A DNA stretch of 64,000 nt from an uncultured Planctomycetia bacterium (GTDB taxonomy: Bacteria; Omnitrophota; Gorgyraeia; VGKH01; JBHPFN01): contig CAYOSQ010000002.1 of assembly GCA_964406665.1 (NCBI GenBank), forward strand, positions 182,219-246,218, given 5' to 3'. Positions 37,021-59,188 of the stretch are shown piece after piece (the stretch's first letter is position 1; every line of letters begins with the position of its first letter). The notes below the pieces were generated by a model, which had not been told where the DNA came from, made no database searches, and saw nothing but the letters and a program-made list of their open reading frames with translations. The position numbers and the translations under genes were made by a program.

Positions 37021-37048
37021 AATGCAAAGTACGTACTCGAATTTTCAG

Positions 37049-37156: not shown

Positions 37157-37204
37157 ATTATCACCTCCTTATTTCTTTAAAATTCTTAATAACAAAGCGT
37201 AAAA

Positions 37205-37800: not shown

Positions 37801-37864
37801 TATAAAAGTACGTACTCAAGTACGTACTTTTATATCTATCGCTACTACGTAGTGACTACGTAGT
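37801..37864. promoter_or_regulatory. Cluster of perfect palindromes: a 34-bp palindrome TATAAAAGTACGTAC-tcaa-GTACGTACTTTTATA, plus two tandem copies of the 10-bp palindrome ACTACGTAGT. Candidate operator sites or a bidirectional terminator.
   Basis: Read directly. The half-site AAAGTACGTACT recurs at 37026-37037, on the other side of the lipoprotein and small-ORF unit. Confidence 0.5.
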
Positions 37865-37918
37865 TATATTATTATCAAAATATTATTAATTAACTATGTA
37901 CCTCCAGATCTTACGGAG

Positions 37919-38883: not shown

Positions 38884-38906
38884 AACAATCTCCTAACTTT
38901 CGATTA

Positions 38907-41636: not shown

Positions 41637-43304
41637 ATGATGTCTGATTTCATATCGCGCCTAAATCTTTTTGCAGTATCTTCAATTCTCATTTTTTTCT
41701 CTAACCTAACTATATCTATACTTGCATTTCTGAAAGGACAGGACAAGCGATTAAGCATTGTCTTTGGTCTACTTTGTCTTTGCGTTACTACTTGGGGAAT
41801 CGGAGGATATATTTCCTCTACAACAACATCCAAAGAGATTGCTTATCTAGGATGGCAAATTGCGAACATATGTTCAGTATTCGTATCACCAATATATTTT
41901 CATCTTGTCTGCATATACACTAAAACAGCTAGAAAACATCTGCTTTTGTTGATGTATTTTTGTGGATTCGTATTTATCTCTTTTAATTTCTTTGCTAAAG
42001 AAATGTTTTTAGGGGACTTGCAGTTACTTTTTAATCAATTTTATTATATTAGCTGGTCTGTAGACAAGAATTTGATTTACTTAATTTTTTATATTTGCTT
42101 CTATTGGATTTTTTTATTATATTCTTTTTATATATTGGTGAGAAATTTTTTAAATTCAAGTAAAAAAAAGCGCAATGAGATAAAATATTTTTTAATAGGA
42201 ACAAGCATTGGATGGCTAGGAGCTCATGGTGATTTTTTAAGCGTGTTTAAACCAACTTTTTATCCGTACTTAAATTTTTTAATAGCTATTTATCCTATTA
42301 TTTTGACTTACGCAATCTTTAAACACCAGCTCATGGATATAAAAATCGTTCTTCGTAAGGGACTTGTATATTCTATTTTAATTGCTTTTATAACTATAAT
42401 CTATTTGCTAGTTGTGCTTTTGTTTGAAAAGCTACTTCAGGGAATTGTAGGCTATCAATCAATATTTACTAGCATACTGACTGCTCTAATAATTGCACTT
42501 ATTTTTATTCCCCTAAAGAACAAAATACAAAACTTCGTTGATATGGTATTTTTCCAGGGAACCTTTACTCAAATCGCCAAGGAAAAAGAACTAATAAGCG
42601 AGGAGCTTAATCGCTCTGAACGGCTAAAATCAGTAGCTACTTTTGCATCTGGCATGGCCCATGAAATTAAAAATCCCTTAACTGCGATAAAGACATTCAC
42701 TGAGTACTTACCAGAGAAAAAGAACGACCCTGAATTTCTAGACAAATTTTCTAAGATTGTTTCAGGAGAAGTAGGCAGAATTGATTCTTTGGTTCATCAA
42801 CTATTAGACTTTGCTAAACCCTCTCTCCCCAAGCTCATTCCTGTTAACATCCATACTCTTCTTGAAGAAACCCTGAGCTTCCTTAATAATCAACTAATTA
42901 AACATAAAATTAAAGTAAAAAAAGAGCTAAGAGCAACGCAATTTACTATACAAGCTGATTTAAATCAGCTAAAGCAAGCATTCTTAAATATATTTCTGAA
43001 TGCGATTGACGCAATGCCTAATGGTGGCTCTTTTGATATCAAGACTACAGCTATTAATTCACAAACAGCAGACAAACAATTCATTCAAATTATAATAAGC
43101 GATACTGGATGTGGTATCAGAAAAAAGGATTTACCGCATATTTTTGAACCGTTTTATACAGCTAAAGATGGCGGGGCAGGCTTAGGACTTTCGATTACAC
43201 ACGAAATTATAAAAAATCACGACGGGAAAATACTTGTTGAGAGTAACACTAACAAAGGAACAACCTTTATAATTGAATTACCTTTAAAAAGTAATAACTA
43301 CTAA
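41637..43304 (+). CDS. Sensor histidine kinase with an N-terminal multi-TM sensor domain (paralog 1).
   Basis: Six to seven TM helices with WGIGGYISSTTTSKEIAYLGWQIANI, then HisKA (SHEIKNPLTAIKTF) and HATPase_c (DTGCGI...GLGLSI). Confidence 0.85.
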   Translation: MMSDFISRLNLFAVSSILIFFSNLTISILAFLKGQDKRLSIVFGLLCLCVTTWGIGGYISSTTTSKEIAYLGWQIANICSVFVSPIYFHLVCIYTKTARKHLLLLMYFCGFVFISFNFFAKEMFLGDLQLLFNQFYYISWSVDKNLIYLIFYICFYWIFLLYSFYILVRNFLNSSKKKRNEIKYFLIGTSIGWLGAHGDFLSVFKPTFYPYLNFLIAIYPIILTYAIFKHQLMDIKIVLRKGLVYSILIAFITIIYLLVVLLFEKLLQGIVGYQSIFTSILTALIIALIFIPLKNKIQNFVDMVFFQGTFTQIAKEKELISEELNRSERLKSVATFASGMAHEIKNPLTAIKTFTEYLPEKKNDPEFLDKFSKIVSGEVGRIDSLVHQLLDFAKPSLPKLIPVNIHTLLEETLSFLNNQLIKHKIKVKKELRATQFTIQADLNQLKQAFLNIFLNAIDAMPNGGSFDIKTTAINSQTADKQFIQIIISDTGCGIRKKDLPHIFEPFYTAKDGGAGLGLSITHEIIKNHDGKILVESNTNKGTTFIIELPLKSNNY

Positions 43305-43321
43305 ACCCTATAACCTGATTC

Positions 43322-44503
43322 CTAAATCTTTCCCTCTTCACTCAATTCAATAAAAGCCTTTGCGGCTAAAGGATTAAATTGAGCACCAATCCCCTTCTTT
43401 ACTTCTGAGATCGCGATATCTAAAGGAAGGGCTTTTCTATAAGGTCTATCTGAAGTCATGGCATCAAAAACATCAGCAACAGCTATAATTGCTGCAGTAA
43501 GAGGTATCTCATCACCCTTAAGTCCTTCTGGGTAACCCTTGCCATCATATCTCTCATGATGATACTTAACCCCCTTAATGCAATCATCGAGTTCTTTTAT
43601 AGGTTGGAGAATTTTAGTACCCTGAATCGTATGCTCTTTTATCTTGTCAAATTCTTCATCAGTAAGTTTACCGGGTTTATTCAAAATTGCTTCCGGAACA
43701 GCAATTTTTCCAATGTCATGGAGTAAGCTTGCAATATGTAGATTTTCTAAAAACTTATCCGGCACATGGACAACTTTATTTTTTATCAATTTATTAGCAA
43801 TCAGAAGAGAATATTTTGTAACCCGCTCAGTATGGCCTCTGGTGTAATGATCTTTGGCTTCAATTGCTTCTGCAAGTGCAATCGTAGTATTTATAAATAG
43901 TTCGTGGTTAATCCTAAGCTCGGTGGCTAGATCATCAAAAAGCTGGGCATTGCGTATTGCCATAGCAACATCATAAGCTAAAGCCACAAAAAAATCCAAC
44001 TCGCCTTTAAAAAATTTCTTTCTGGAAGTTTTCTTTCCTAATACTAAAACTCCGAGTAACTCTTTTCTGTAATAACTCGGGATACAAACGCTAGCTTCAA
44101 ATAAATCCATCTGCTTCTTTACTCCGAGGATAAGCTCCTCTAAGCCTTTTTCTTTCTTTACAAGCTGATCTTTCCAAAGGATGTTGTTTATATTGTCATA
44201 CACTAAAGCTCCGCCATCTTTGCTTAAAAGATATTGCTTTTGCAGCTTAAAGAACTTAATAAGAGAACTATCACTTTTTACTCTCGCATAACCTGCAGGG
44301 ATTTTTACTCCCTTTTCTCCGCGGGAAACAGTTAAGACATATGATTCTCTTTTTTTATCATGCAAAAGTATACCAGCGTATGATACACCTATCTTCCTGT
44401 TCATCATACGCACAATCATCTTAATAAGAGATTCTGGCTTATGCACAAGAATCATAGTTTTTGCTGCTGTTTCTAATTCTTTTTTGTAATCTAAATGCGT
44501 CAT
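43322..44503 (-). CDS. GAF-like domain plus HD-GYP domain protein (putative c-di-GMP phosphodiesterase).
   Basis: HDIGKIAVPEAILNKPGKLTDEEFDKIKEHTIQG...HHERYDGKGYP HD-GYP signature. Confidence 0.8.
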   Translation of the reverse strand: MTHLDYKKELETAAKTMILVHKPESLIKMIVRMMNRKIGVSYAGILLHDKKRESYVLTVSRGEKGVKIPAGYARVKSDSSLIKFFKLQKQYLLSKDGGALVYDNINNILWKDQLVKKEKGLEELILGVKKQMDLFEASVCIPSYYRKELLGVLVLGKKTSRKKFFKGELDFFVALAYDVAMAIRNAQLFDDLATELRINHELFINTTIALAEAIEAKDHYTRGHTERVTKYSLLIANKLIKNKVVHVPDKFLENLHIASLLHDIGKIAVPEAILNKPGKLTDEEFDKIKEHTIQGTKILQPIKELDDCIKGVKYHHERYDGKGYPEGLKGDEIPLTAAIIAVADVFDAMTSDRPYRKALPLDIAISEVKKGIGAQFNPLAAKAFIELSEEGKI

Positions 44504-44508
44504 ATTAA

Positions 44509-44865
44509 CTATGATAATTCCTTTAGCACGACTTCTTCAAGTTCGTCAAGAACCAAAGGCTTATGAATATAATTAACTGCACCTAACTGTTTAGCCCTTT
44601 CCATTGACTCTTTATCTTCCACACCTGTAACCATAATGACTTTTATCGTGTTATCAATCTTCATAATCTCTTCAAGGACGTCCAGTCCATTCATATCCTC
44701 CATTCTTACATCAAGTAGCATAAGATCAGGCCTTTGCTCCTTAATTGAATTTAATGCCTCAATGCCGCCAGATGCTGTTGCAGTATCCACTTTTCTTTTT
44801 TTGAAAAAATTACTGGCGAATTCCCGAACATCTGGCTCATCATCTACTATTAATAGTCTAGACAT
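44509..44865 (-). CDS. Single-domain response regulator (receiver only).
   Basis: LLIVDDEPDVREF...DLMLLDVRMEDMNGLDVLEEI has the acidic pocket and phospho-acceptor Asp. Confidence 0.85.
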   Translation of the reverse strand: MSRLLIVDDEPDVREFASNFFKKRKVDTATASGGIEALNSIKEQRPDLMLLDVRMEDMNGLDVLEEIMKIDNTIKVIMVTGVEDKESMERAKQLGAVNYIHKPLVLDELEEVVLKELS

Positions 44866-44899
44866 TTTAATCCCCTTTCTAGGTTATAGCGTTTAGGGT

Positions 44900-45268
44900 T
44901 TAGCGCTTAGTCTCAAGTTTAGAAATAAGAACGTTTAACATTTTTAAAATCTCAAGAAGAAAATTATCAGACTTAGAATACTCTAAATTTTTGGTATCTT
45001 CAAGTTTTTTTGAAATACAAATTTGCGTCTCCAGCTCGGAAGCTGAACTGTAGGCAATAGTCAAGAAATGAATATATTCTTTTACGTGTTTCCTGCAATA
45101 TCCCTCGGCAATATTAGAAGGAATAGCAACAGCAGCTCTGCGCATTTGAGAAGTTAATCCGTATATTTCACTTTGAGGGAAAGATTTTGTTAATTTATAG
45201 ATTTCTAAAACCAAATCCATAGCCTTTTGCCACACAATTAAGTCTTTATATGATTTTAACTTAGCCAT
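44900..45268 (-). CDS. Four-helix-bundle protein (23S rRNA intervening-sequence protein / Avd-like family).
   Basis: SYKDLIVWQKAMDLVLEIYKLTKSFPQSEIYGLTSQMRRAAVAIPSNIAEG is the family signature. Confidence 0.8.
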   Translation of the reverse strand: MAKLKSYKDLIVWQKAMDLVLEIYKLTKSFPQSEIYGLTSQMRRAAVAIPSNIAEGYCRKHVKEYIHFLTIAYSSASELETQICISKKLEDTKNLEYSKSDNFLLEILKMLNVLISKLETKR

Positions 45269-45305
45269 TAAATTTTCCTACACCCTAAAACCTATCCCCT
45301 GCACC

Positions 45306-47492
45306 CTATTTCTGCGCGGGTAATTTCATAGTAAACATTGTTCCACTGCCATACTCAGAAGTAACACCTATTCTTCCCTTATGGTTATTTACTATAATTT
45401 TTTGTATTACGTACAACCCTAAACCAGTACCTTTTTTACTCGATGCTTTTGTGGTAAAAAATGGTGTAAATAATCTTACCTGCTCTGCATCTTTTACGCC
45501 CATTCCATTATCAATGAACCTAATCTCGATAGAGGAGTCTGTTGCTTCAGCCTGGATTGTAACATTACCCCTGTAACCTTCTTCCTTTAACTCACTTCTT
45601 CTCTGCATAATAGCATCGTAGGCATTATCTATCAAGTTAAAGAAAACTTCCTGAAGCTGAACAAAGTTTCCTTTTATTTTAGGGATATCTTGGGAATAAT
45701 CCCTAATTAAATCTATCTGGCTAAGTTTAACTTTATATTGTGCCATTTCAAGTGATGCATCAACAAGCTCATTTAGATCTATTGCCTTAAAGCCGGATTC
45801 TCCAGCTCGAGAATATTTAAGCAAACCATGAACAACCTCTCCGCCCTGCTTTACATTTTCTTTAACTCTCTCAAGTGCATGGCTAATCTGAGTGATGGCT
45901 TCGCGCATCTCTTCAGGAGATGAATTATCGTTTAACAGTTTTATCGTGTCCAGTGTATCTGCAGCAATCATTCCAAGTGCATGAAAACGGTTATTTATCT
46001 GATGTGACAGGCCATCTGCCATAGTACCGATCGTGGTCATCTTTTCTGCCTGGAAAAGCTGAGTTTGTGTTTCCTTAATATCTTCATAAAACTGTGCATT
46101 TTCAATCGCTAGAGCAGCTTGATTAGTTAAAACAGAAAATACTGACAAATCATCCGGTGAATAAATATGGCCAGAAATCTTCTCTCCTAAAGTCAGAAAA
46201 CCAATAAGCTCATCTTCAACCAAGCTAGGAACAACAACAGCAGCCCCTAAAGATTCCATTTGCTTTTGAATAGCAAGAAGCCTGGAATCATTAAAATCAG
46301 ATGCCTCTTGTTTTATCTCTTCATAAACTAGCGGCACTCTTTTCTTCCTCAAGGCCTTTATCAAAGCAGTGTTTTCTTCAACCGAAACAGGCGGAGGAGA
46401 TTTCTTCTTATCTCTGTGGGCCTGAAGTGTAAAAATATGATTATTGGGCTCAAGTAGATATATTGAACTATGTTTAATGCGTACTGTACGGGTTACAATA
46501 TGAACAATCAGATTAAGAAGCTTTTTTAGGTCTCGGATTCTCGTCATTCCGCTAGAAGCCTGCCTAAGAGTTTTTTGATACCTTCTCTGCTCTCTTAACA
46601 ATGCGTCTTCTGCTCTTCTTTGAATGTAAAGGTATATAAATGGACCTGATGTCGCAAGAAAAGTTGATAATGCTAAAGGTCCTATCCACCAATTATCACC
46701 CAACAATAGTGTTAAGTATGGACGAAGTCTATAGGCGACAACAAAAGGTGTTCCTAGAATCAAGGAATAAACACTAATGAATATACCTGTGCGAGTAATG
46801 GCAACAGTTACATCCATCAGGCGATAGCGAAAGATGGCATAACCAATAATCAGAGGGTAAATAGCTATTAAGAAATTACTCAGGGGGTAAACATTAATTC
46901 CAAAAACTAATAAAAACATACCATGAGGGCCAACCCATCCTATCAAAGATGCTAAAATAATATATTTCGCCCTATTGCGAGCAAGTCCACTGCTTTTTTT
47001 ATAAAATTTCACCAACAAAAAGAAGGCGTATGAAATGAGAAAATGGTAAAAAACTATATAGTATGATAAATAAAGTAAGCTTTTTTTCTTGCTCCATGCC
47101 ATCCAATAGAATTGGTTAAATACTAACTCGAGCTCACCAATAAAGAATTCCTTATACAAAAAGGCAAACCCTATATAGATAAATCCAAGCATATAGGAGA
47201 AAAAAATGAGAGGTTTTTTAGTAACCTTAGTGAACTTGCAGACAAAATGTAAGAATAATGGTGGAGTAAGAATCATTCCAATATGAGCAATCTGCCATCC
47301 TCTGTAAGCTACTTCTTTTGACGTAGTTACTCCTAAAATTAAACTTCCTATTCCAAAAATCGCCGCTCCTAAACATACTAGAGCATAGCTAATAGAAACA
47401 ACTCTTTCTTGACCTTTTAAATAAATAACAACCCCTACAAATAGGGTAAAAACAACAACTAATATACATGACAAACTAAAAACACTTATCAT
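45306..47492 (-). CDS. Sensor histidine kinase with N-terminal multi-TM sensor, GAF domain, HisKA and HATPase (paralog 2).
   Basis: Same N-terminal 7TM-like module (FGIGSLILGVTTSKEVAYRGWQIAHI), a central GAF region, and a HATPase C-terminus (DNGMGV...GTGLGL). Confidence 0.85.
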   Translation of the reverse strand: MISVFSLSCILVVVFTLFVGVVIYLKGQERVVSISYALVCLGAAIFGIGSLILGVTTSKEVAYRGWQIAHIGMILTPPLFLHFVCKFTKVTKKPLIFFSYMLGFIYIGFAFLYKEFFIGELELVFNQFYWMAWSKKKSLLYLSYYIVFYHFLISYAFFLLVKFYKKSSGLARNRAKYIILASLIGWVGPHGMFLLVFGINVYPLSNFLIAIYPLIIGYAIFRYRLMDVTVAITRTGIFISVYSLILGTPFVVAYRLRPYLTLLLGDNWWIGPLALSTFLATSGPFIYLYIQRRAEDALLREQRRYQKTLRQASSGMTRIRDLKKLLNLIVHIVTRTVRIKHSSIYLLEPNNHIFTLQAHRDKKKSPPPVSVEENTALIKALRKKRVPLVYEEIKQEASDFNDSRLLAIQKQMESLGAAVVVPSLVEDELIGFLTLGEKISGHIYSPDDLSVFSVLTNQAALAIENAQFYEDIKETQTQLFQAEKMTTIGTMADGLSHQINNRFHALGMIAADTLDTIKLLNDNSSPEEMREAITQISHALERVKENVKQGGEVVHGLLKYSRAGESGFKAIDLNELVDASLEMAQYKVKLSQIDLIRDYSQDIPKIKGNFVQLQEVFFNLIDNAYDAIMQRRSELKEEGYRGNVTIQAEATDSSIEIRFIDNGMGVKDAEQVRLFTPFFTTKASSKKGTGLGLYVIQKIIVNNHKGRIGVTSEYGSGTMFTMKLPAQK

Positions 47493-47494
47493 TT

Positions 47495-48925
47495 TTACCT
47501 CATAATTCTCAGTATTTTAAAAGCAACCCTTTTGCCGCTGAGAGCGGCATTAGAAATCCCGCCTTGACCAAAGGCATATGTAAGCCAATGACCGCACAGA
47601 AATAAACCATCAATTTCGGTTTTGTTAGTAACTAATTTAAAGTTTGCTTTGTTTGCCTGGCTAGGAAATGCTGCCCATCCATAAGCAGAGCCATTGAAGT
47701 TTAGGGTGTGTCTAAAAAGATCATAAGGAGTAGCAATTATTTTTAAAGAAATATGTCTAGATAAATTCTCGATTATCTCTTCTGCTCTTTTTATTAAATT
47801 GTGGCTAATTTCATGTTTGTTGTTCTCCCAAAAACTTTCATTCTTAAACGGTGCCATCATCAGGATATGCATGCTTTTTAAGGTAGATCTAGAAACATTG
47901 AATTCTGACAAAGAGCACAAAAGATTATTGCCGGAAAAATTAATGCTCTCTGGATTATTATCCTGCAAATACACGTTATTCATATCAGAAGTTGGATACC
48001 ACAAAGCAGTACATTTTTTCAAACCTAATTCACTAAAAGTATTTTTTAATCCGAGATAAACAAGAAATATCGAAGGCGTAGAAACAAGACTATTAAGTTT
48101 GTTGATATAATTTTTTGCTAAATAATCCTCGCCTATCAAGCTAAAAAAAGTTTGCCGTAAATCACAATTGGAAACAATAAATTTTGACTCCACAAGTTGC
48201 TCATCTATCCTAATCCCCTTAACCTTGTTGTTTGAAATCTTTATTTTGTTAACCTTGCTGGAAAACAAAATGCTGCCCCCAAATTCTTTTAGTTTTTTAG
48301 CCAAGGCCTGGGGAAAAGAAATCATACCTTCTTTTGGATAATAACCACCATTAATTATAAAATCTCGATAGAGAACAACGGCAACCAAAGCAGAAATTGC
48401 CTTCGAAGAAACACCTAAATTACCCAACGGTATGTTTAGGAGATATTTTATTTTCTTATCAGCGAAATATTCATTTAAAAATTCCAAAAAAGTCTTATGT
48501 CTTAACTCATAATAAAGTTGACTATTGCGAGTATTTGTAATAAACATAAAGAAATTTTCAATATTATTTGCTTCCTTGGGAAACGAGCTCTGTAATCCAT
48601 GAATTGTTTTCTTAAGATCATTCCAAAAACAAATCTCATAGTCATGCGTAACTATAATATCTGAAGGATCGATTCTCGTAAATTCAATATCCAAGCTTAA
48701 TTCTTCTACTACATTTCTTAATCTTCCTCCTTTATACATTTCTCCCAAAGAATGTGGCCCTGCATCAAACCTATAGCCATCCCTTTCAAAAGAACTACAG
48801 TATCCTCCAGGCTTATCATTTTTCTCTACTATTAAAACTTTTTTTCCGGCTTTAGCAAGATAGCAACCACAAACAAGCCCACCAATTCCTGCTCCAATTA
48901 TTACAACATCATATTTCTCGCTCAT
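47495..48925 (-). CDS. FAD/NAD(P)-dependent oxidoreductase of the phytoene-desaturase/amine-oxidase (CrtI-like) family.
   Basis: YDVVIIGAGIGGLVCGCYLAKAGKKVLIVEKNDKPGG dinucleotide-binding fold; 476 aa. Confidence 0.75.
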   Translation of the reverse strand: MSEKYDVVIIGAGIGGLVCGCYLAKAGKKVLIVEKNDKPGGYCSSFERDGYRFDAGPHSLGEMYKGGRLRNVVEELSLDIEFTRIDPSDIIVTHDYEICFWNDLKKTIHGLQSSFPKEANNIENFFMFITNTRNSQLYYELRHKTFLEFLNEYFADKKIKYLLNIPLGNLGVSSKAISALVAVVLYRDFIINGGYYPKEGMISFPQALAKKLKEFGGSILFSSKVNKIKISNNKVKGIRIDEQLVESKFIVSNCDLRQTFFSLIGEDYLAKNYINKLNSLVSTPSIFLVYLGLKNTFSELGLKKCTALWYPTSDMNNVYLQDNNPESINFSGNNLLCSLSEFNVSRSTLKSMHILMMAPFKNESFWENNKHEISHNLIKRAEEIIENLSRHISLKIIATPYDLFRHTLNFNGSAYGWAAFPSQANKANFKLVTNKTEIDGLFLCGHWLTYAFGQGGISNAALSGKRVAFKILRIMR

Positions 48926-49521
48926 CTTATATGTCTCACTGTCTCTGATAAAGGTTTCCTTATAGAACGCTTGCCTTCTTCAATGCGATAACCAAAGGTC
49001 AAGACTGCAATTAGCTCATCAGTAGTATCAAGAAGTTCGTTTATTTCTTTTTGACAAAATAATGGAGTATCCAACCAACAAGAACCAACGCCAAGTGCTT
49101 CTGCAGCAAGTATCATGTTTTGAATTGCAGCAGAAATTGCAGAAAGTTGAGCAGTCTTAATTATTTTAGAAAATTTAGAATAAATTACTTTAAATTTATG
49201 TTTTATTTCTTCCAAATCTCTAGAATTATAAACTAGAATTATAATGGGAGCACCTTTAATTATATTTGATGCTGAATGCAACATGATATTAACACCAGTG
49301 GTTGATTTTTTAGATTCTTTTAGGATTAAATTAGCAATTCTTGCAATTGAATTTTTATTCGAAATAACAATAAATCTCCAAGGTTGAATTTGCAGAAAAC
49401 TGGGGACAGAAGGCCCCCAAGTTCCTGCTTCGACAATCTTATCTATTATTTCACTTGAAATTGGTTTTTCTTTATATCTTCTTATCGTTTTTCTTTGTTT
49501 TATTAATTCTAGAACATCCAT
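48922..49521 (-). CDS. Nitroreductase-family flavoprotein.
   Basis: LELIKQRKTIRRY...QPWRFIVI nitroreductase motifs. Confidence 0.8.
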   Translation of the reverse strand: MDVLELIKQRKTIRRYKEKPISSEIIDKIVEAGTWGPSVPSFLQIQPWRFIVISNKNSIARIANLILKESKKSTTGVNIMLHSASNIIKGAPIIILVYNSRDLEEIKHKFKVIYSKFSKIIKTAQLSAISAAIQNMILAAEALGVGSCWLDTPLFCQKEINELLDTTDELIAVLTFGYRIEEGKRSIRKPLSETVRHIR

Positions 49522-49539
49522 ACTTCTTTTACCTCTTTC

Positions 49540-50658
49540 TTAATAGACAGGTCTAGTAGCTTTCCTTGGATTATCTTTTCTAATAAACCCAGATTTGATG
49601 CAATATTCAAAAGCTCGACTAAGATTATTTTTATCGATCGCTGGATATCGAAATCTGTATACTTTAAGCATATCAGCCGTCCTCTTGGCAACAAAATTTG
49701 CCTTATAGTTAAAATACGGAATATGAGGCTCACAGAAGGCACTTTGGATTGCTGTGAGCTCTAAGAAATCAAAATCTTCTTTTGGGATAAACTCAGGCAT
49801 CTTGAAACTAAAATAATCGCTGGCAAGTTTCATAAAAAAACTTAAATTAGTATTTTTTTGGCTGATAATATGAAAAACTCGGCTTCCCTTCTCTTCTGAA
49901 AGTACAATTATAGCTTTTGCAACAGTATCAATATTAATCAAGTTCTGTCCGCAATCTAAATTCGCCGGATATTTATCAAAAATCTCATTAGTAAAATAGC
50001 GTAAAGGTTGATAGACTAATCTGAAACTATTTGTCTTTCCTGTCTTTGAATCACCCATAATCATGCTCGGACGAAAAACTGAGACATTTAGACCTTTTTC
50101 CAGATATTCTTTAACCAACAATTCTGCTTCAAATTTACTCTGTTCATACGTATTGTTAAACCCTTGACCCACATCCAACATAGTCTCATCAAAATCAATT
50201 ACCTTAGTCCCAACTACATACATTGTGCTTATATGATTAACTTTCTTTAACCGTCCTTTCTTTTGACATTCAGCTGCAAAATCTAAAACATTGCGCGTAC
50301 CTTCAACATTTATTTTACGTATCTTTTCAATAGGAACTTTTAATTCAGCTAATGCAGCACTGTGTATAATAATATCAGATTCGAAAAGAAGAAGCTCTTT
50401 GTCTTTCGGGTTAATACCTAAACCAGGTAAAGCAATATCTCCTTCGATTACTTTTAGATTAGAAGCAATGAAATCAGAATCCCACTGTTCATCATATACA
50501 AACCTTAAAGCCTCATCAACTCTCTGATTGGCAGTTTTTCCATCCTTCTGTCGCGCTAGAGCAAAAATTTTGTATCCTTTTTCAAACAATTCTTTAACCA
50601 AAAAACTGCCCAAAAATCCTGTTGCGCCAGTTATAAATACATTTTTCTTAGCTTTCAT
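49540..50658 (-). CDS. SDR-family NAD(P)-dependent reductase of the thioester-reductase / fatty-acyl reductase (NAD_binding_4) type.
   Basis: VFITGATGFLGSFLVKEL Rossmann motif and the Y..SK catalytic pair (NTYEQSKFEAE). Length 372 aa, typical of TE-reductase domains. Confidence 0.65.
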   Translation of the reverse strand: MKAKKNVFITGATGFLGSFLVKELFEKGYKIFALARQKDGKTANQRVDEALRFVYDEQWDSDFIASNLKVIEGDIALPGLGINPKDKELLLFESDIIIHSAALAELKVPIEKIRKINVEGTRNVLDFAAECQKKGRLKKVNHISTMYVVGTKVIDFDETMLDVGQGFNNTYEQSKFEAELLVKEYLEKGLNVSVFRPSMIMGDSKTGKTNSFRLVYQPLRYFTNEIFDKYPANLDCGQNLINIDTVAKAIIVLSEEKGSRVFHIISQKNTNLSFFMKLASDYFSFKMPEFIPKEDFDFLELTAIQSAFCEPHIPYFNYKANFVAKRTADMLKVYRFRYPAIDKNNLSRAFEYCIKSGFIRKDNPRKATRPVY

Positions 50659-52267
50659 ATGCCCTTACAAGAAGTTCAATAATTAATTTCGTCCCTACCC
50701 CTACTTTACTTTCTAACCTTATATTACCACTATGTTCCTTAATAATATTATATACTATTGACAAACCTAATCCAGTACCTTGTTCTTTTTTTGAATAGAA
50801 CGGTTCAAAGATGCGAGGAAGGTCTTTCTTCTGTATCCCGCACCCAGTATCTTTAATTGAAATCACAGTAAATTGAGAATTAATGTCGCTATTTGAGGTG
50901 CTAACTGTAAGCATACCCTCATCAGGCATAGCATCAATTGCATTTAGAAATATATTCAGGAATGCTTGCTTCAGCTGATTCGAATCTGCCTGTATGTTAA
51001 AATGAGTTGCGCTATATTCCTTCACTAGGTTTATTTTGTGTTTTACTAGCTCATTGCTTAAGAAATTTAAAGTTTCATTCAAGACAACATGAACATCTAC
51101 AACCTGCAACTTCAAAGGTTTTGGTTTAGCAAAATTTAAAAGCTGATGGACCAAGGAATCAATCCGCTCAACCTCAATCCCAACAATCTTAGAGAATTTG
51201 TTTAAAAATTCAGGATCGCTTTTTTTCTCTGGTAAATGTTCTGCAAAGGTTTTTATAGCAGTTAACGGGTTCTTTATTTCGTGTGCCATACCAGATGCAA
51301 ATGTTGCTACTGCTTTTAAGCGTTCGGATCGCTCAATTTCTTTTTCGAAAAGCTGCTTTTCTTCGCTCAAACTCTCCAAAGTGCCTTTAAAAAACTTCTT
51401 ATCCAAAAAATGCTGAATTTTATCCCTTAAAGGATTAAAAACTAAGCCGATTGAGAATACTGCAAGTAGGTTAACAGCAAAAGACTGATATCCAACTAAA
51501 CCCTGAAATAACCTACTAACACTAATAACAAATATTAGATATCCAGCAGTTATAATGGCTGCCAAAACAGAATAGACCAAGCCTTTCTTGATAACAATCT
51601 CAATATCCATAAGATGATGCTTAAGAATTGCGTAAGCAACTATCCCAAGATATGACCCAACTAATATCCATCCAAATGGATATATTTCTATTCCATAATT
51701 AGCAACAAAATCAACAGAGCTCAATGTTAAAATAAAACAAGCAACTATTACATAGCGTATCTGAAATCTTCTTACTAAGGAAATTTTCTCCTTTAAGTAA
51801 TGATTAATCAAAAAAGCAATCAATAAAATAACTAACAAAGCAGTGAAAAATAATAAAAGCGGATGCAGAAGACCCGCCTTAGGATAATGTCCCCAAAAAT
51901 AAACATAAACACCGTCAATGATAAAATCACTTTTCAAAATTAAAACCACTAATAAAATCCAAACAGCATGCATTGTATAAACGAATTTACGATAAGAACT
52001 TATGTTTAAAAATGCCAAAACAAAATCAAAGGCAGCTAAAGGCACGCTTACTATGCCGACATATGCTAATCTTAAGAAAAATTCAGCATTGCTTTTATCG
52101 TTAAAATTATATGCAATCGAAGTAAATAATAGCCAAATAAAAATTGATAGACTCATTAAAAAGAAGTTCTTATTTACTACGCTCTTTCTATCCCTTATAT
52201 AGGTAAAAATACCTAGTAAGAAAATTAGAGCGGTCATAATAAAAGTTGGAATAGAATAAATGCTCAT
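50648..52267 (-). CDS. Sensor histidine kinase with multi-TM sensor (paralog 3).
   Basis: N-terminal 7TM-like module, HisKA SHEIKNPLTAIKTF, HATPase DTGCGI...GTGLGLSI. Confidence 0.85.
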   Translation of the reverse strand: MSIYSIPTFIMTALIFLLGIFTYIRDRKSVVNKNFFLMSLSIFIWLLFTSIAYNFNDKSNAEFFLRLAYVGIVSVPLAAFDFVLAFLNISSYRKFVYTMHAVWILLVVLILKSDFIIDGVYVYFWGHYPKAGLLHPLLLFFTALLVILLIAFLINHYLKEKISLVRRFQIRYVIVACFILTLSSVDFVANYGIEIYPFGWILVGSYLGIVAYAILKHHLMDIEIVIKKGLVYSVLAAIITAGYLIFVISVSRLFQGLVGYQSFAVNLLAVFSIGLVFNPLRDKIQHFLDKKFFKGTLESLSEEKQLFEKEIERSERLKAVATFASGMAHEIKNPLTAIKTFAEHLPEKKSDPEFLNKFSKIVGIEVERIDSLVHQLLNFAKPKPLKLQVVDVHVVLNETLNFLSNELVKHKINLVKEYSATHFNIQADSNQLKQAFLNIFLNAIDAMPDEGMLTVSTSNSDINSQFTVISIKDTGCGIQKKDLPRIFEPFYSKKEQGTGLGLSIVYNIIKEHSGNIRLESKVGVGTKLIIELLVRAYES

Positions 52268-52268
52268 T

Positions 52269-53906
52269 TTAATATCTTTGTTCTTGCTTCGCTGTTGGTA
52301 AGTTGATTAAAAACCTCGTCCCTTTACCAACCTCACTGTCGACAGATAATGTACCCTTATGATTATCAATTATTTCTTTGATTATCACCAGACCAAGCCC
52401 TATCCCTTCTTTTTTTGTAGTGAAGAATGGAGTGAAGAGTTTTTTTTGGTCTTCAACGGAAATACCGCTGCCAGTATCTTTTACGCTAATATTTACGAAT
52501 TTGTCTTCTCGCGAATCAACGCTAATTGACAGCACGCCACCGTCATCCATAGCCTGAACAGAATTTAGGAATAAATTTAAAAATACCTGGCGGAGCTGTT
52601 CGTCATCGCCTTCAACTATTGCCTCATTGACTGAGTAGTCTTTTTTTAAGTTTATTTTCTTCAATTTTAGATTCTCTTCTAAAAGAGAAAGAGTGGCATC
52701 GATTGTATTGATAATGTTTACTTTACCTAAAGATGGATGCGCAGGTTTAGCAAGGCTTAAAAGCTGATTTACTACATTGTCAATTCTGCCTAACTCTTTA
52801 GGAATAAGTTTTTGGAACTTATCTTTATATTCCGGATCATTGGCTTTTTCCGGGAAGTATTCTACAAAAGTCTTTATTGCGGTTAGAGGATTCCTGATCT
52901 CATGAACAACGGAGCTGGCTAAGGTGCCCATATAGGCTAATTTTTCTTTTTGAAAAAGCTGCTCTCTTAAGCGCTCTCTTTCTTGGACTAAGGTTTCAAG
53001 CGTACCTTTAAAAAACTTCTTATCCAAAAAATGCTGGATCCTATCCCTTAAGGGATTAAAAGTTAAAGCAATAGCAAATACTGCAAGAAGATTAACTGCG
53101 AAAGATTGATAACCAACTAAACCCTGAAATAACTTACCAATACCAATGACAAAAATCAAATAACAAGCAGTAATAATAGCTGCTAACACAGAATAAACCA
53201 AACCTTTTTTAATGACAAACTCAATATCCATAAGATGGTGACGAATTATTGCATATCCAATAATTAATGGATATAAGGCAAGTGCAAAATTGGAAAAAGG
53301 ATAAACGTTAAAACCAAAATTAAGCAAAAACATTCCATGTGGCCCCAACCATGCAACTAATGTGCCAAGGATAAAGTATTTTAATTGATTTCGTTTTTCC
53401 CCCGTGGAACTCTTAAAGTGGCCTAATAATAACAAGAATGAGTACAAGAGCAAAAACCAATAAAAGCTTATGTAGAAAAATAAATATATTGGATTTTTAT
53501 TGCTAGGCCAATCATGCCAATAGAATTGATTGAATACCCATCTCCCCTCACCCAAAAAGTAATCGCTGGCAAAAAAAACTAAAAACAAAAATAAGCCTGA
53601 AAAAAGATAAGCGGCAATAAGTAAATATTTTTTCCTTAGCTTAAGAAGCTCTAAGGTAAAATGAAAGAATATTGCCGGACCGAGCACAACGCCAATATTA
53701 GCTATCCGAAACCAAGAAAGAAAGACTTCTCTCGATAAGGTAGTTGAATACTTATATGATCCTATTCCCCACGCTGTTGCTACCACACAAAGACTTATCC
53801 AGATAATACTAATTTTTCTATTTTTTCCTTTTTGAGATACAAGTATTGCTATCGCAAGATTTGAAACTATCACCAATATTGACGAAAAAGCAAATATGTT
53901 CATCAT
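52269..53906 (-). CDS. Sensor histidine kinase with multi-TM sensor (paralog 4).
   Basis: AWGIGSYKYSTTLSREVFLSWFRIANI N-terminal module; HisKA VHEIRNPLTAIKTF; HATPase. Confidence 0.85.
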   Translation of the reverse strand: MMNIFAFSSILVIVSNLAIAILVSQKGKNRKISIIWISLCVVATAWGIGSYKYSTTLSREVFLSWFRIANIGVVLGPAIFFHFTLELLKLRKKYLLIAAYLFSGLFLFLVFFASDYFLGEGRWVFNQFYWHDWPSNKNPIYLFFYISFYWFLLLYSFLLLLGHFKSSTGEKRNQLKYFILGTLVAWLGPHGMFLLNFGFNVYPFSNFALALYPLIIGYAIIRHHLMDIEFVIKKGLVYSVLAAIITACYLIFVIGIGKLFQGLVGYQSFAVNLLAVFAIALTFNPLRDRIQHFLDKKFFKGTLETLVQERERLREQLFQKEKLAYMGTLASSVVHEIRNPLTAIKTFVEYFPEKANDPEYKDKFQKLIPKELGRIDNVVNQLLSLAKPAHPSLGKVNIINTIDATLSLLEENLKLKKINLKKDYSVNEAIVEGDDEQLRQVFLNLFLNSVQAMDDGGVLSISVDSREDKFVNISVKDTGSGISVEDQKKLFTPFFTTKKEGIGLGLVIIKEIIDNHKGTLSVDSEVGKGTRFLINLPTAKQEQRY

Positions 53907-53964
53907 AAGCTACTTTTTAAATATTCATTCGAGTAAATTCGTATTTGATTCTTATATATTTGCA

Positions 53965-55203
53965 TTAATCATATTTTCTCAATACCAAACATGCATTATT
54001 TCCCCCAAACGCGCTTGAATTATTCATTGCAACATTTACATTTTTTTTCCTTGCCTTATTTGGAACACAATCTATATCACAGTCAGAATCCGGTGTTTCA
54101 TAATTAATTGTAGGTGGGATTATCCCTTTCTTTATTGTAAGACAGCAGACAATTGCTTCAATCGCTGAAGCTGCTCCCATGGTATGACCCAACATTGATT
54201 TAATTGAACTAATGGGAATATCTTTGTAGTTCCCGCCGAAAGCTTTTTTTATTGCTGCGCATTCTGCCTTATCATTCTGAATTGTTCCTGTACCGTGAGC
54301 ACAAATATAATCAACTTCTTCAGGTATAGCCTCAGACTGGGTTAGCGCATTTTTAAAACATTTTGTTATGCCAAATGTAGTTGGCGCTGTCATGTGGTAG
54401 GCATCACAAGATAAGCCACAACCTAAAACCTCAGCATAAATTTCAGCTTTTCTTTCTAAGGCGCTGTCTAATGACTCTAAAATAACAATTCCTGAACCTT
54501 CCCCTGCTAACATTCCCTGCCTATTCTTATCAAAAGGTTGACATTTTTCTGGCGCCATAGCAAAAATTCTGCTGAAACCAGCCATATTAATTCGTGAAAA
54601 AGCATCTGCACCTCCTGCAATTACCATATCAACCTCGTTGACTTTGATTAAATCACTAGCAAAAGAAATGGAATGATTACCTGCTGAACACGCGTTAGGA
54701 AAAAGATAATTACACCCTTCAGATTTTAAATCAAAAGAGATATTTGAAGAGATAGCATTTGAAGGATATTTTGTAATTAATTCTGAATCGATGCCGTTTT
54801 CCCCTTTTTGAAGCCAAAGCTGATCAATTAACTCCATTGTTTGAGCTTCCCCCATCGTTGTTCCTAAACACACACCAACTCTCTCCTTATCAACGCCAAC
54901 AATATCAATCTTAGCATCTTCAAGGGCTAATTTTGATGCAGCTATAGCTAGTTGAGAGGCACGCCCCAAAACCTTTAATTTTCTCCTATCAATAAATTTT
55001 TCAGGAGAGAAATTTTTAATCTCCCCGCCGTAATGACGATCATATTGAGAGGTATCGAAAGATTCTATCTTGCTTATGCCAGACTTACCATTAATGCAAT
55101 TCTTCCAGAATTCCTGCCAGCCAATTCCTATAGAGGAAACAACGCCCAACCCTGTTATAACAACGCGCCTGTTTTTGTTCATTTTATTTAACATTATTGT
55201 CAA
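53965..55203 (-). CDS. Beta-ketoacyl-ACP synthase (KAS I/II family); a second copy, distinct from fabF.
   Basis: RRVVITGLGVVSSIGIG, active-site Cys (NACSAG) and His (CAHGTGT) motifs. Confidence 0.8.
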   Translation of the reverse strand: MTIMLNKMNKNRRVVITGLGVVSSIGIGWQEFWKNCINGKSGISKIESFDTSQYDRHYGGEIKNFSPEKFIDRRKLKVLGRASQLAIAASKLALEDAKIDIVGVDKERVGVCLGTTMGEAQTMELIDQLWLQKGENGIDSELITKYPSNAISSNISFDLKSEGCNYLFPNACSAGNHSISFASDLIKVNEVDMVIAGGADAFSRINMAGFSRIFAMAPEKCQPFDKNRQGMLAGEGSGIVILESLDSALERKAEIYAEVLGCGLSCDAYHMTAPTTFGITKCFKNALTQSEAIPEEVDYICAHGTGTIQNDKAECAAIKKAFGGNYKDIPISSIKSMLGHTMGAASAIEAIVCCLTIKKGIIPPTINYETPDSDCDIDCVPNKARKKNVNVAMNNSSAFGGNNACLVLRKYD

Positions 55204-55208
55204 CAGTC

Positions 55209-55220
55209 AACTGTCGACAG
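55209..55220. promoter_or_regulatory. Perfect 12-bp palindrome ACTGTCGACAGT in the 27-bp gap immediately 5' of the ketosynthase start codon.
   Basis: Read directly. It is flanked by the related GTCAACAG half-repeat. Confidence 0.35.
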
Positions 55221-55230
55221 TCCACGGTTA

Positions 55231-55593
55231 TCATTTTCTCAAATAGTTCCTAAGCTTTTGTAACATTTTAATAATTATTTCAGCTTCTGAATATAAAGAT
55301 TTAAAATCTTGTTGATTAATAAGTTCTCTTCGTTTACCTAAATATAAACAAGAAACAACTTCAATAGCTGATCTAATTGCGTAACCGATGAATTGCTTAA
55401 ATTCAGCATTGCTTTGACCAGTTGAACCTTCGGCAATGTTCAATGCTATTGAATCAGCAGCTCTTTTTATCTGACTTGATAAAATATATAGCTCTTCTTT
55501 TGGAAATGTCTTTGTCAAACTATTGATACGAGCACTAAATTCAATAGCTTTCTGCCATACTTCTAACTTTTCAAATTTAAAGCCCATATTCAC
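55231..55593 (-). CDS. Four-helix-bundle protein (23S rRNA IVS protein / Avd-like family), second copy.
   Basis: KFEKLEVWQKAIEFSARINSLTKTFPKEELYILSSQIKRAADSIALNIAEG. Confidence 0.8.
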   Translation of the reverse strand: MNMGFKFEKLEVWQKAIEFSARINSLTKTFPKEELYILSSQIKRAADSIALNIAEGSTGQSNAEFKQFIGYAIRSAIEVVSCLYLGKRRELINQQDFKSLYSEAEIIIKMLQKLRNYLRK

Positions 55594-55621
55594 CTATCGA
55601 CCATGGACAATAGACCATGGA

Positions 55622-55846
55622 CTAACCCTTTCTCCGCTCTTGTCTTTTAGAGTTAAACTGCACCTTCTCAACAATCCATTTATCAATCAACTTCTTATGA
55701 AAACGCCAATCATATCCGATTTTAAAACCAGGGATCTTCCCTACCCGCACAAGCTTATACACTGTAGCAGGATGAATCTGCAAATACTCTGCGAGTTCTT
55801 TTATATCCATTATGTCTTTACTAGTGTTTTTTTCAGTCATTTTCAA
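55622..55846 (-). CDS. Small helix-turn-helix DNA-binding protein (excisionase/MerR-like HTH family).
   Basis: MDIKELAEYLQIHPATVYKLVRVGKIPGFKIGYDWRF matches the excisionase-family HTH pattern. Confidence 0.7.
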   Translation of the reverse strand: MKMTEKNTSKDIMDIKELAEYLQIHPATVYKLVRVGKIPGFKIGYDWRFHKKLIDKWIVEKVQFNSKRQERRKG

Positions 55847-55966
55847 CCTATGCTAAAGTGAGCCTAAATGAGTCATATTAAGCTTAACTATGTATTATTA
55901 ATATAAAATAACCAGGCTATTTTGTCAAGATTTTTTTTAATTAATTGGTTTTTTTAGGAATTTGTT

Positions 55967-56899
55967 CTAGGAAAGTGCTTCTATGTCTTGAGGTTTTTCA
56001 ATATTCATTACTTTTAAGGAAGAATCAATCCTACGTTGAAGCCCACGAAGAACTTTGTTTGGGCCAATCTCAAGATAGGAAACAATGCCCTCTTTAGCTA
56101 TGCGGCGAATAGAATCTTCCCAAAGGACTGATGAGCTAACTTGATCTTTTAGGTTGTTGCGGATTTGTTCAGCTTCGTTCTGAGACTTTGCAGTTACATT
56201 ACTTATTACAGGAACTTCAGGTACAGATATGTCGATTTTTGATAATTCTTGACCGAGCCTCTCTCCAGCTTCTTTCATCAGCGATGAATGAAAAGCCCCG
56301 CTTACCTGTAAATCAACGGCGTTTCTAGCACCTAGTTTTAAGGCTTCCTCTTTTGCTACATCAACTTTCTCTTTCTCACCGGTAATAACCACCTGTCCGG
56401 GGCAATTCAAATTAGCAATTTCTGCACCAGTTTGAGAACAGATATCTTTTAATTGATCTCTTTCAAGCCCGATGATTGCTGCCATCTTTCCGGGATTTTT
56501 TGCTGCAGCCTCTTCCATAAATTCTGCGCGCTTTCTAATCAATCTTACACCGTCTTCAAAACCGAATACGCCTGCTGCAATAAGTGCAGAATATTCACCC
56601 AAGCTTAACCCGGCAGTAAATACTGGTTTAATCTCAGATGTTTTTTTATTCTCTTCTAAAGCGCGCAAAGCGGCGATGCTATGGATTAAAATTGCAGGTT
56701 GACAGTTAATGGTAGATTTAAGATCTTCTTCTGGACCTTCGAAGATAATTTTTTTTATGTCAAACTTTAGTACGTCGTTTGCTTTATCAAAAACTTCTTT
56801 TGCAGCAGGTGAAGAACCATAGAGCTCTTTGCCCATACCAACGTACTGCGAACCTTGACCAGGGAATAAAAAAGCGGTTTTTTCTTGCATTGCTACCAT
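55967..56899 (-). CDS. fabD: Malonyl-CoA:ACP transacylase.
   Basis: AFLFPGQGSQYVGMG and GLSLGEYSAL active-site Ser motif. Confidence 0.9.
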   Translation of the reverse strand: MVAMQEKTAFLFPGQGSQYVGMGKELYGSSPAAKEVFDKANDVLKFDIKKIIFEGPEEDLKSTINCQPAILIHSIAALRALEENKKTSEIKPVFTAGLSLGEYSALIAAGVFGFEDGVRLIRKRAEFMEEAAAKNPGKMAAIIGLERDQLKDICSQTGAEIANLNCPGQVVITGEKEKVDVAKEEALKLGARNAVDLQVSGAFHSSLMKEAGERLGQELSKIDISVPEVPVISNVTAKSQNEAEQIRNNLKDQVSSSVLWEDSIRRIAKEGIVSYLEIGPNKVLRGLQRRIDSSLKVMNIEKPQDIEALS

Positions 56900-58859: not shown

Positions 58860-59188
58860 CCGGCTCTTCCTTTCTTTGCCAAGCCTAACCTATCTTTAAG
58901 CTTAGCTAATCCACTTCCATATGTTTTTAAATTTTTCTCACGAATGTATGCACTTGTTTTTGATTTATAGGCTTCAAAATAAATCAGCTCAACAGGAAGT
59001 TTGGTTTTAGTAGAGAAAACTTTTCCTCTGCTATGTTCTTCCAACCTATTTTTTAAATCACCAGTACAACCAATATAAATCCAAGATGTTTTTTTACTCG
59101 CAAGCAAATATACAAAATACCAATTGCCGCTAAAAGCTTTACCTGCCGAACCCCTCGTTCCATAATCTTTAGGAAGAGCAGGGCTCAT
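58856..59188 (-). CDS. GIY-YIG nuclease-domain protein sitting between rpmF and plsX.
   Basis: WYFVYLLASKKTSWIYIGCTGDLKNRLEEH...REKNLK GIY-YIG core. It has 4-nt overlaps with both neighbours. Confidence 0.75.
   Translation of the reverse strand: MSPALPKDYGTRGSAGKAFSGNWYFVYLLASKKTSWIYIGCTGDLKNRLEEHSRGKVFSTKTKLPVELIYFEAYKSKTSAYIREKNLKTYGSGLAKLKDRLGLAKKGRAG

Follow-up and report, generated by a model that had tools for sequence, protein, structure and literature searches.

A cluster of twelve genes runs along the minus strand, from 55846 to 43322, of the 64,000-nucleotide stretch of Omnitrophota DNA that we analysed (the window), and a further kinase gene on the plus strand converges on its end. 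We propose that this cluster couples a lipid-tailoring branch of fatty-acid synthesis to intramembrane-sensing kinases that would signal through a single receiver (REC) to a GAF-HD-GYP protein, and we put the probability of this reading at roughly 55%. Two-way conservation of the gene neighbourhood in relatives gives strong hints that the enzymes are physically linked to the kinase, REC and HD-GYP genes. The enzymes themselves are a reduced Omnitrophota version of the extended type II fatty-acid synthesis (FAS-II) cluster represented by kuste3603-3608 of anammox bacteria and by relatives in Desulfotalea and Geobacter (PMC2649909, Rattray et al. 2009; PMC4790861, Javidpour et al. 2016). A preliminary description of this DNA had taken the enzyme core for part of an operon type that it did not recognise; that part of the description did not stand (PMC2649909). 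Its broader idea, a self-regulating membrane-lipid or signalling-lipid remodelling system, remains an inference.

Domain assignments across 41637-55846 are based on Pfam and NCBIfam profile searches of the open reading frames (ORFs). The genes of the cluster, with the convergent kinase last, are:

55622-55846, minus: HTH_17 (excisionase/MerR-type) DNA-binding protein (Pfam E 3.3e-14)
55231-55593, minus: IVP1, 23S_rRNA_IVP four-helix bundle (Pfam PF05635, E 6e-36)
53965-55203, minus: KASb, beta-ketoacyl-acyl carrier protein synthase (KAS) II paralog, kuste3605-type (Pfam/NCBIfam)
52269-53906, minus: HK1, histidine kinase, HisKA_7TM-HisKA-HATPase (Pfam)
50648-52267, minus: HK2, histidine kinase, HisKA_7TM-HisKA-HATPase, mosaic (Pfam, sliding identity)
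49540-50658, minus: stand-alone NAD(P)-dependent thioester reductase, a NAD_binding_4 short-chain dehydrogenase/reductase (SDR) of 372 amino acids (aa) (Pfam E 4e-58)
48922-49521, minus: nitroreductase-family flavin mononucleotide (FMN) protein (Pfam Nitroreductase E 1.3e-29)
47495-48925, minus: kuste3607-type flavin adenine dinucleotide (FAD) enzyme, Amino_oxidase/CrtI superfamily (Pfam, alignment, AF2/Foldseek)
45306-47492, minus: HK3, histidine kinase, HisKA_7TM-GAF-DHp-HATPase, the conserved hub (Pfam)
44900-45268, minus: IVP2, 23S_rRNA_IVP four-helix bundle (Pfam PF05635, E 2.7e-37)
44509-44865, minus: single-domain receiver, CheY-like REC (Pfam Response_reg E 7.6e-30)
43322-44503, minus: GAF-HD-GYP cyclic-dinucleotide phosphodiesterase (Pfam HD_5 E 1.4e-38)
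41637-43304, plus: HK4, convergent histidine kinase, HisKA_7TM-HisKA-HATPase (Pfam)

All twelve minus-strand ORFs lie where the preliminary description had placed them and carry the domains it had named, and Pfam HisKA_7TM likewise bears out the fourth 7TM kinase paralog that it had seen converging on the cluster end. The ORFs are intact and keep their catalytic residues. Gaps between the twelve genes, which we recomputed, are -11, -4, 1, 2, 5, 18, 27, 28, 34, 37 and 58 bp, in agreement with the range of -11 to 58 bp reported before. The locus had also been presented as a distinctively tight, co-directional operon, and this does not hold: 71 of the window's 76 genes share the minus strand, about 94% of the sequence is coding, and the median same-strand gap is 8 bp outside the cluster compared with 18 bp inside it. 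Because equally tight packing and strand bias are found genome-wide, tight spacing lends the operon claim no support. We therefore discarded operon-like spacing as evidence, and a functional unit must rest on comparison with other genomes. The contig derives from a compact Omnitrophota genome, and its homologs carry the names Omnitrophota or Omnitrophica. An identical SDR sequence was found on 12 contigs drawn from several samples, with the same gene order wherever a contig reaches far enough.

Conservation of the gene neighbourhood

We tested the association from both ends, using tblastn-based counts that are uncorrected for phylogeny. The forward test found 31 Omnitrophota species loci through the SDR, and genes on the same strand were counted in loci with at least 4 kb of flank. 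In 22 of 24 loci the enzymes were followed by a 7TM-GAF kinase, compared with 4 of 21 in the upstream control. REC was found downstream in 14 of 24, and HD-GYP in 12 of 24 compared with 0 of 21 upstream. The reverse test found 80 metagenome loci through alignment of the 7TM-GAF kinase (42-58% identity). Here, at least one lipid gene lay within 9 kb upstream of the kinase in 32 of 46 loci, as against 1 of 43 downstream; REC followed the kinase in 32 of 45, and HD-GYP in 31 of 45 (0 of 46 upstream). The preliminary description had made its proposal depend on whether related genomes keep these genes together, and they do: enzymes, 7TM-GAF kinase, REC and HD-GYP are co-adjacent in dozens of divergent Omnitrophota loci.

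Enzyme content and order differ among these loci. The full Omnitrophota version, whose order varies, is HTH_17-FabZ-KASa-SDR-FabG-ACP-KASb-flavoenzyme-nitroreductase-(flavoenzyme or GMC oxidoreductase)-7TM-GAF kinase-REC-(REC)-HD-GYP, where ACP is acyl carrier protein. A second variant runs ACP-SDR-B12 radical SAM, in some loci with an AMP-ligase as well, and then continues with 7TM-GAF kinase-REC-HD-GYP; the B12 radical SAM gene occurs in loci L019, L021, L023 and L032. Two loci found through the flavoenzyme have no SDR and still have the 7TM-GAF kinase, one with two convergent HisKA_7TM kinases and the other with a fused REC-HD-GYP. Reduced layouts like that of the window occur in L013, L111 and L118. 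Despite this reshuffling, adjacency of enzymes and kinase persists at 28-58% protein identity, and since it is kept across the CrtI-type and the B12-radical-SAM/AMP-ligase-type variants, with and without the SDR, the link survives changes in the enzymes. Beyond Omnitrophota, two Nitrospirota loci have methyltransferase-FabG-KAS-FabZ-KAS-ACP-flavoenzyme followed directly by a MASE8-PAS hybrid histidine kinase, and the anammox locus L098 has ACP-FabZ-KAS-KAS-flavoenzyme-B12 radical SAM with no kinase, SDR or nitroreductase.

Could the two halves be unrelated units, a lipid or secondary-metabolite cluster and a two-component/c-di-GMP module with some other target, that adjoin by inherited synteny? 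The genome-wide spacing and strand bias would allow it, the comparison loci are nearly all from Omnitrophota, 14 of the 46 kinase-anchored loci have no detectable upstream lipid genes, and the anammox cluster has no kinase. Against this, the adjacency holds at the identities given above while the enzyme set is reshuffled, the flank controls are near zero, and Nitrospirota have independently put a different membrane kinase at the same spot. On balance we consider inherited synteny unlikely.

The enzymes

Of the four enzymes, the KAS is a dedicated paralog of the kuste3605 type and not the cell's FabF. It scores 438 bits on TIGR03150, the FabF equivalog model (cut-off 493.75), and 419.6 bits on NF005589, above the cut-off of 387; its identity to the housekeeping FabF of the window is only 43%. 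A neighbour-joining tree places it with Omnitrophota KASb proteins (61-62% identity), Nitrospirota KAS2 (55-57%) and an anammox kuste3605-like protein (54%). Its Cys-His-His triad is intact, as it is across the KASb clade. In the partner clade, KASa (kuste3606-like), all three residues are gone, as in a chain-length factor, and the window cluster has no member of this clade. Two other sets of fab genes lie in the window:

23918-21560, minus: fabG-acpP-fabF, canonical housekeeping set (NCBIfam)
55967-58859, minus: plsX-fabH-fabD, directly upstream of the cluster (Pfam)

The FabF of the first set (ORF 21560-22801) reaches 640 bits on TIGR03150 against the same cut-off of 493.75, and the neighbouring FabG passes TIGR01830. 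We had considered that the cluster KAS might be the housekeeping FabF continuing the plsX-fabH-fabD operon; the set at 23918-21560 and the sub-cut-off TIGR03150 score rule this out. The second set belongs to the string yceD-rpmF-(GIY-YIG)-plsX-fabH-fabD. In seven loci, among them the relatives L013, L111, L116, L118, L159 and L174, plsX-fabH-fabD precedes the cluster; it is a conserved entry context within one sub-lineage. The fab operon is thus split in the window: fabG-acpP-fabF stands about 30 kb from plsX-fabH-fabD, and the lipid/kinase cluster occupies the place usual for it.

The assignment of the SDR as a thioester reductase was borne out by its predicted fold, which is that of a carrier-protein thioester reductase. 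The best matches by sequence are likewise terminal thioester-reductase domains. Its AlphaFold2 (AF2) model has a pLDDT of 92, and the top Foldseek matches are MxaA (4u7w/4w4t, TM-score 0.80), a polyketide synthase (PKS) thioreductase, a nonribosomal peptide synthetase (NRPS) T-R didomain and carboxylic acid reductase (CAR) reductase domains, with the plant fatty acyl reductase DPW also among the best matches. In the dinucleotide-binding motif TGxxGxxG, conservation is 90% or more at T10, G11 and G14, and all of 22 homologs keep S144, T145, Y171 and K175. The protein shares its fold, this motif and the Thr-Tyr-Lys residues with the PKS, NRPS and CAR reductase domains and with fatty acyl-ACP/CoA reductases; it differs in standing alone, with no carrier-protein fusion, and in scoring 173.1 bits on TIGR01746 (thioester reductase), below the cut-off of 213.35. 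Six relatives (L011, L019, L023, L024, L037 and L039) have an ACP gene immediately before the SDR. Its reaction is likely the reductive release of acyl-ACP as fatty aldehyde or alcohol.

Distant homologs of the reductase (30-38% identity) occur in Actinomycetota, in the Solirubrobacterales loci L042-L084, often within about 3 kb downstream of a FabH-like gene and in several loci directly after it. This suggests that the reductase family is more widely associated with fatty-acid initiation enzymes. The "ElbD homologs" reported in the literature for 93 of 267 Black Sea Omnitrophota metagenome-assembled genomes (MAGs) may be matches to the same family. The myxobacterial elb ether-lipid cluster itself was dropped as an analog, since in the literature ElbB is HAD-like and not CrtI-like.

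The flavoenzyme resembles kuste3607 more than it does a carotenoid desaturase. Against the truncated reference sequences in the supplement of PMC4790861, it is 31% identical to kuste3607 (185 bits), 26% to kuste3336 (136 bits) and 22% to Pantoea CrtI (81 bits). Its homologs come after ACP or KAS genes in Nitrospirota, anammox bacteria and Omnitrophota. By context and score it is not a carotenoid desaturase, and it probably acts on the acyl chain, by desaturation, isomerisation or saturation.

The preliminary description had named a carotenoid desaturase beside a crt cluster as an outcome that would undo its proposal, and a carotenoid or isoprenoid pathway, or true ladderane synthesis, does have some support. 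The AF2 model of the flavoenzyme (pLDDT 89) has the CrtI/CrtD fold, with the carotenoid desaturase 4rep as best Foldseek match (TM-score 0.85, E 5e-34), and its top NCBIfam models are CrtI, CrtD and CRTISO. Moreover, antiSMASH calls "ladderane" clusters in Omnitrophota MAGs (PMC9902471). However, each of those NCBIfam scores is below its cut-off (128.7 bits on TIGR02734, crtI_fam, against 238.1), there is no crtB, crtE or other crt gene in the recorded Pfam annotation, which covers most of the window, and the flavoenzyme is consistently flanked by ACP and KAS genes. Neither kuste3336 nor kuste3607 could replace CrtI in vivo, and no lycopene was made (PMC4790861). Ladderanes are known from anammox bacteria only (PMC9902471), and the B12-radical-SAM partner of the anammox cluster is not in the window cluster. 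We regard this explanation as largely refuted and give it hardly any weight.

For the nitroreductase-family protein, no close relative that has been characterised came up, and the best match in the PDB is 3gfa, itself an uncharacterised protein. Its orthologs adjoin the CrtI-like gene in 8 of 24 Omnitrophota loci, and in the window its stop overlaps the CrtI-like start by 4 bp. It would act as a redox partner, a flavin or electron shuttle, of the adjoining flavoenzyme.

Kinases, receiver and HD-GYP protein

HK1 to HK4 are all polytopic, with 7-11 closely spaced hydrophobic segments within the first ~290 residues (in HK1, about 8 within the first 280). Scant room is left for a large external loop, which fits sensing within the membrane. 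By the same hydrophobicity analysis, the cluster enzymes are soluble. A HisKA domain was found in HK1, HK2 and HK4, and 12 orthologs of HK3 show no variation at H497 or at the residues of the N, G1 and G2 boxes. The phospho-acceptor His of the kinases and the Asp of the receiver are both conserved, as judged by residues and domains.

An N-terminal multi-transmembrane module had been described as shared by the kinases of the cluster. HK2 does match the Pfam 7TM model, but its identity to HK1 and HK4 reaches just 3-23% in the first 200 columns of the alignment. Its linker (columns 240-440) is 77-91% identical to HK1, and its catalytic core (columns 480-640) 62-82%, mostly 77-82%, identical to HK4. 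At the DNA level, the kinase genes contain a 300-nt direct repeat and inverted repeats of 214 and 157 nt, at 73-77% identity; HK2 and HK4 form an inverted pair about 8 kb apart. In just a few relatives an HK1-type kinase immediately precedes the SDR (L012, L013, L017) or ACP-SDR (L019). The presence of HK1 and HK2 between KAS and SDR is a variable, lineage-specific elaboration.

After HD-GYP, a convergent kinase with its own receiver, HK7(-) and REC(-), is found in L117, L137, L162 and L180; in L177 the convergent kinase is present and REC was not detected. The REC partner of HK4 that relatives have is missing in the window. The convergent kinase is called at 450 aa in L001 and L003, two assemblies of the same population, and at 555 aa in another, L002, as in the window; the difference reflects a start-site or a strain polymorphism. 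The Pfam annotation recorded for the rest of the window contains no receiver domain beyond the one in the cluster, which agrees with the earlier count of a single receiver for four kinases. Its residues, as read from the translation, include D8/D9, the phospho-acceptor D52, T80 and K102.

HD-GYP had been named as the sole output domain of the locus, and the Pfam assignments bear this out. The motifs H262-D263 and H315-x-E317-x-x-D320-G321-x-G323-Y324-P325 are invariant among seven orthologs. The GAF domain attributed to the same protein is below the Pfam cut-off, and we recovered it with a profile of these seven orthologs, in which residues 27-188 match the PtsP GAF domain 3ci6 (E 1.4e-7). The same profile ranks the cGAMP-specific V-cGAP3 (5z7c) first among PDB relatives, followed by the c-di-GMP phosphodiesterases PmGH (4mcw) and PA4781 (4r8z), so that the substrate could be c-di-GMP or 3'3'-cGAMP. 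REC and HD-GYP are adjoining but separate proteins in the window and are fused in the relatives L028, L025 and L100; these fusions support the view that the two work together in the window.

This arrangement recalls the Rpf/diffusible signal factor (DSF) system of Xanthomonas, with RpfF, RpfB, the sensor kinase RpfC and the REC-HD-GYP regulator RpfG. Both have fatty-acid chemistry beside a membrane kinase and an HD-GYP regulator. Our main rival explanation is accordingly cell-cell signalling of this kind, in which a diffusible signal derived from fatty acids, for example an unsaturated fatty aldehyde or alcohol, would be received by the 7TM kinases and the HD-GYP protein would lower c-di-GMP. 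The output would be a split RpfG, which is fused in relatives, and the reductase would free the acyl chain from ACP instead of handing it to phospholipid synthesis. Very divergent sensors on common catalytic cores are what receptor diversification would give, and the kinases appear to have no large extracytoplasmic domain. By Pfam and NCBIfam, however, the locus has no RpfF-type synthase of the enoyl-CoA hydratase (ECH)/crotonase type and no RpfC-type hybrid kinase bearing REC or a histidine phosphotransfer (HPt) domain. On the phosphodiesterase, GAF takes the place that REC has in RpfG. The position directly after plsX-fabH-fabD suggests primary lipid metabolism, and the orthologous anammox cluster is among the most highly expressed candidate clusters (PMC4790861), which we read as more consistent with a bulk-lipid role. 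We therefore see Rpf/DSF-like signalling as unlikely.

Comparison with known systems

The likeness to the extended FAS-II cluster lies in the KAS and the flavoenzyme, orthologs of kuste3605 and kuste3607, and Omnitrophota relatives share further parts: ACP, FabZ, FabG and the inactive kuste3606-type KAS partner. In the window copy, ACP, FabZ and the inactive KAS are absent, and 43322-55846 leaves no gap of more than 58 bp; relatives L091, L092, L012 and L035 have all three. The window cluster also has no B12 radical SAM gene of the kuste3608 type. What it adds to the anammox locus is the stand-alone thioester reductase, the nitroreductase-family protein, the 7TM kinases and the REC/HD-GYP output. 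Given the orthology of the window KAS and flavoenzyme to kuste3605 and kuste3607, the "ladderane" clusters called in Omnitrophota MAGs would be of the same kind as the window cluster.

The missing parts invite the reading that the cluster is a decaying remnant, which has lost ACP, FabZ, FabG and the partner KAS and in which the enzymes that are left have no function and are carried along among selfish small genes and a growing set of kinase paralogs. In keeping with it, HK4 has lost its REC partner, and IVP, GIY-YIG, IS200 and RHS-like insertions lie nearby (see below). Yet all ORFs are intact with their catalytic residues, the SDR is identical on the 12 contigs mentioned above with gene order unchanged, and three relatives share similar reduced layouts. 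Decay is, in our judgement, a highly improbable explanation.

DesK-DesR controls the delta-5 desaturase of Bacillus subtilis, and the window locus resembles it in concept, as a membrane-sensing kinase linked to an enzyme that alters acyl-chain unsaturation. The window kinases differ in having a 7TM or 7TM-GAF fold, their output is not a DNA-binding regulator, and the flavoenzyme is a soluble member of the CrtI superfamily, whereas the delta-5 desaturase is a membrane di-iron enzyme. Type II PKS and aryl-polyene systems pair a ketosynthase with a chain-length factor. Relatives of the window cluster are like them in having an active KAS with a partner devoid of Cys and both His, an ACP, a ketoreductase and a FabA/ApeI-like dehydratase, with no enoyl reductase. 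The window keeps the active KAS only, and aryl-polyene export or attachment genes are not present.

The earlier claim of a lipid-chemistry set inside a kinase locus thus holds in part. The flavoenzyme does not look carotenoid, the SDR has a thioester-reductase fold and the genes are co-conserved, but the core is of a known type and the packing is no evidence. Already known are the enzyme core and the RpfG-like output; apparently new are their consistent pairing, the added SDR and nitroreductase, and the multi-kinase elaboration. In the literature, we found no description of a pairing of lipid cluster and kinase, of the added reductase and nitroreductase, or of a multi-kinase elaboration.

Leader gene, accessory genes and other features

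The HTH_17 protein scores 45.9 bits on TIGR01764, above the cut-off of 28.8. Of the genome loci, 13 of 21 have a homolog ahead of the cluster and 1 of 24 has one downstream, which makes the protein a recurrent cluster leader and a candidate transcriptional regulator. A possible promoter lies ahead of it:

55900-55928, minus: candidate sigma-70-like promoter (TTGACA-17-TATATT), between fabD and the HTH gene, which are 120 bp apart

This is the best match in 41-60 kb (11 of 12 positions). It is only suggestive: in the promoter and terminator scan, overall counts equalled those of shuffles, and no intergenic terminators were found.

Pfam confirms both IVP genes, which had been counted among the twelve as four-helix bundles; their membership of the system is less secure. 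They had no match in any genome locus searched, including the 31 Omnitrophota loci. Two distant metagenome loci are exceptions: IVP2-like genes of 46-49% identity lie at the kinase-REC junction of L117 (7009-7365) and L152 (2151-2486), next to kinases just 47-48% identical to HK3. By this distribution, IVP1 looks like a passenger, accessory to the system and not conserved with it. IVP2, also accessory, may be an old resident of the kinase-REC junction rather than a recent insertion.

Small GIY-YIG genes at 58856-59188 (minus) and 25673-26023 (minus) lie inside housekeeping strings, one of them between rpmF and plsX, and the FAS cluster of L099 contains a similar one; these genes have the look of selfish insertions. 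Near HK4 is an IS200-like Y1 transposase (39463-39975, minus). Beside HK4, where relatives have a receiver gene, is a 381-aa Gly-rich protein with an RHS-core-like N-terminal motif (40486-41631, minus).

Elsewhere in the window, about 24000-39000 is a long run of ORFs with no recorded Pfam match, apart from a weak PilX_N match in a 500-aa protein (29065-30567); it may be a pilus-like or surface-structure locus. Between leuB and asd, a 114-aa protein (18332-18676, minus) has a recorded Pfam match to MamF_MmsF, a magnetosome-protein family.

Proposed mechanism and implications

In the coupling that we propose, acyl-ACP primed by the adjoining PlsX, FabH and FabD would be extended by the dedicated KAS with its intact triad. 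The kuste3607-type FAD enzyme would then modify the chain by desaturation, isomerisation or saturation, with the nitroreductase-family FMN protein as redox partner, and the thioester reductase would free the product, a fatty aldehyde or alcohol, from ACP. The ensuing change in membrane lipid, or the lipid itself, would be sensed in the membrane by the 7TM kinases, with HK3 as the hub and HK1, HK2 and HK4 as variable extra inputs. The kinases would phosphorylate the one receiver, and the receiver would control the GAF-HD-GYP protein and so set the level of c-di-GMP (or cGAMP). The HTH_17 protein at the cluster head would be the likely transcriptional regulator. We infer the substrate, the product, the direction of information flow and the pairing of kinases with the receiver. 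A role in membrane lipids is favoured because plsX-fabH-fabD precedes the cluster in seven loci and the anammox counterpart is reportedly highly expressed.

Several points weigh against this coupling, in addition to the 14 kinase loci with no detectable upstream lipid genes. The nitroreductase and CrtI-like genes occur in only about one third to one half of the SDR-anchored loci, and tblastn calls at 25-35% identity may mix paralogs. Most loci come from one phylum, so that shared ancestry inflates the counts. The HD-GYP output has no obvious feedback on the lipid genes. Finally, with no dedicated ACP, FabZ, FabG or inactive KAS, the window copy may be a decaying remnant or may use housekeeping parts.

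It is tempting to go further and to suggest that the "ladderane-type" extended FAS-II clusters of Omnitrophota and Nitrospirota, anaerobes outside the anammox group, are one half of an undescribed lipid-sensing circuit, in which their product would be read within the membrane by polytopic kinases with c-di-GMP as output through REC and HD-GYP, here diversified to four kinases that differ in their sensor modules and feed one receiver. The product may be either a membrane lipid that has been tailored or a fatty aldehyde or alcohol that is set free. We offer this wider idea tentatively, as possible rather than probable.

Clusters that combine FAS-II genes with a CrtI-like gene have had no known product since their description in 2009, and the label "ladderane" is routinely given to them in genomes for which ladderane synthesis is implausible. 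The compact set of four enzymes found here (KAS, thioester reductase, nitroreductase-family protein and flavoenzyme) is suited to heterologous expression for identifying the chemistry. We know of no earlier concrete regulatory hypothesis for the lipid metabolism of the uncultured, often ultra-small Omnitrophota. The link to a kinase and HD-GYP gives a testable handle on the role of the cluster, and it points to membrane-lipid homeostasis or lipid-based signalling over ladderane synthesis.

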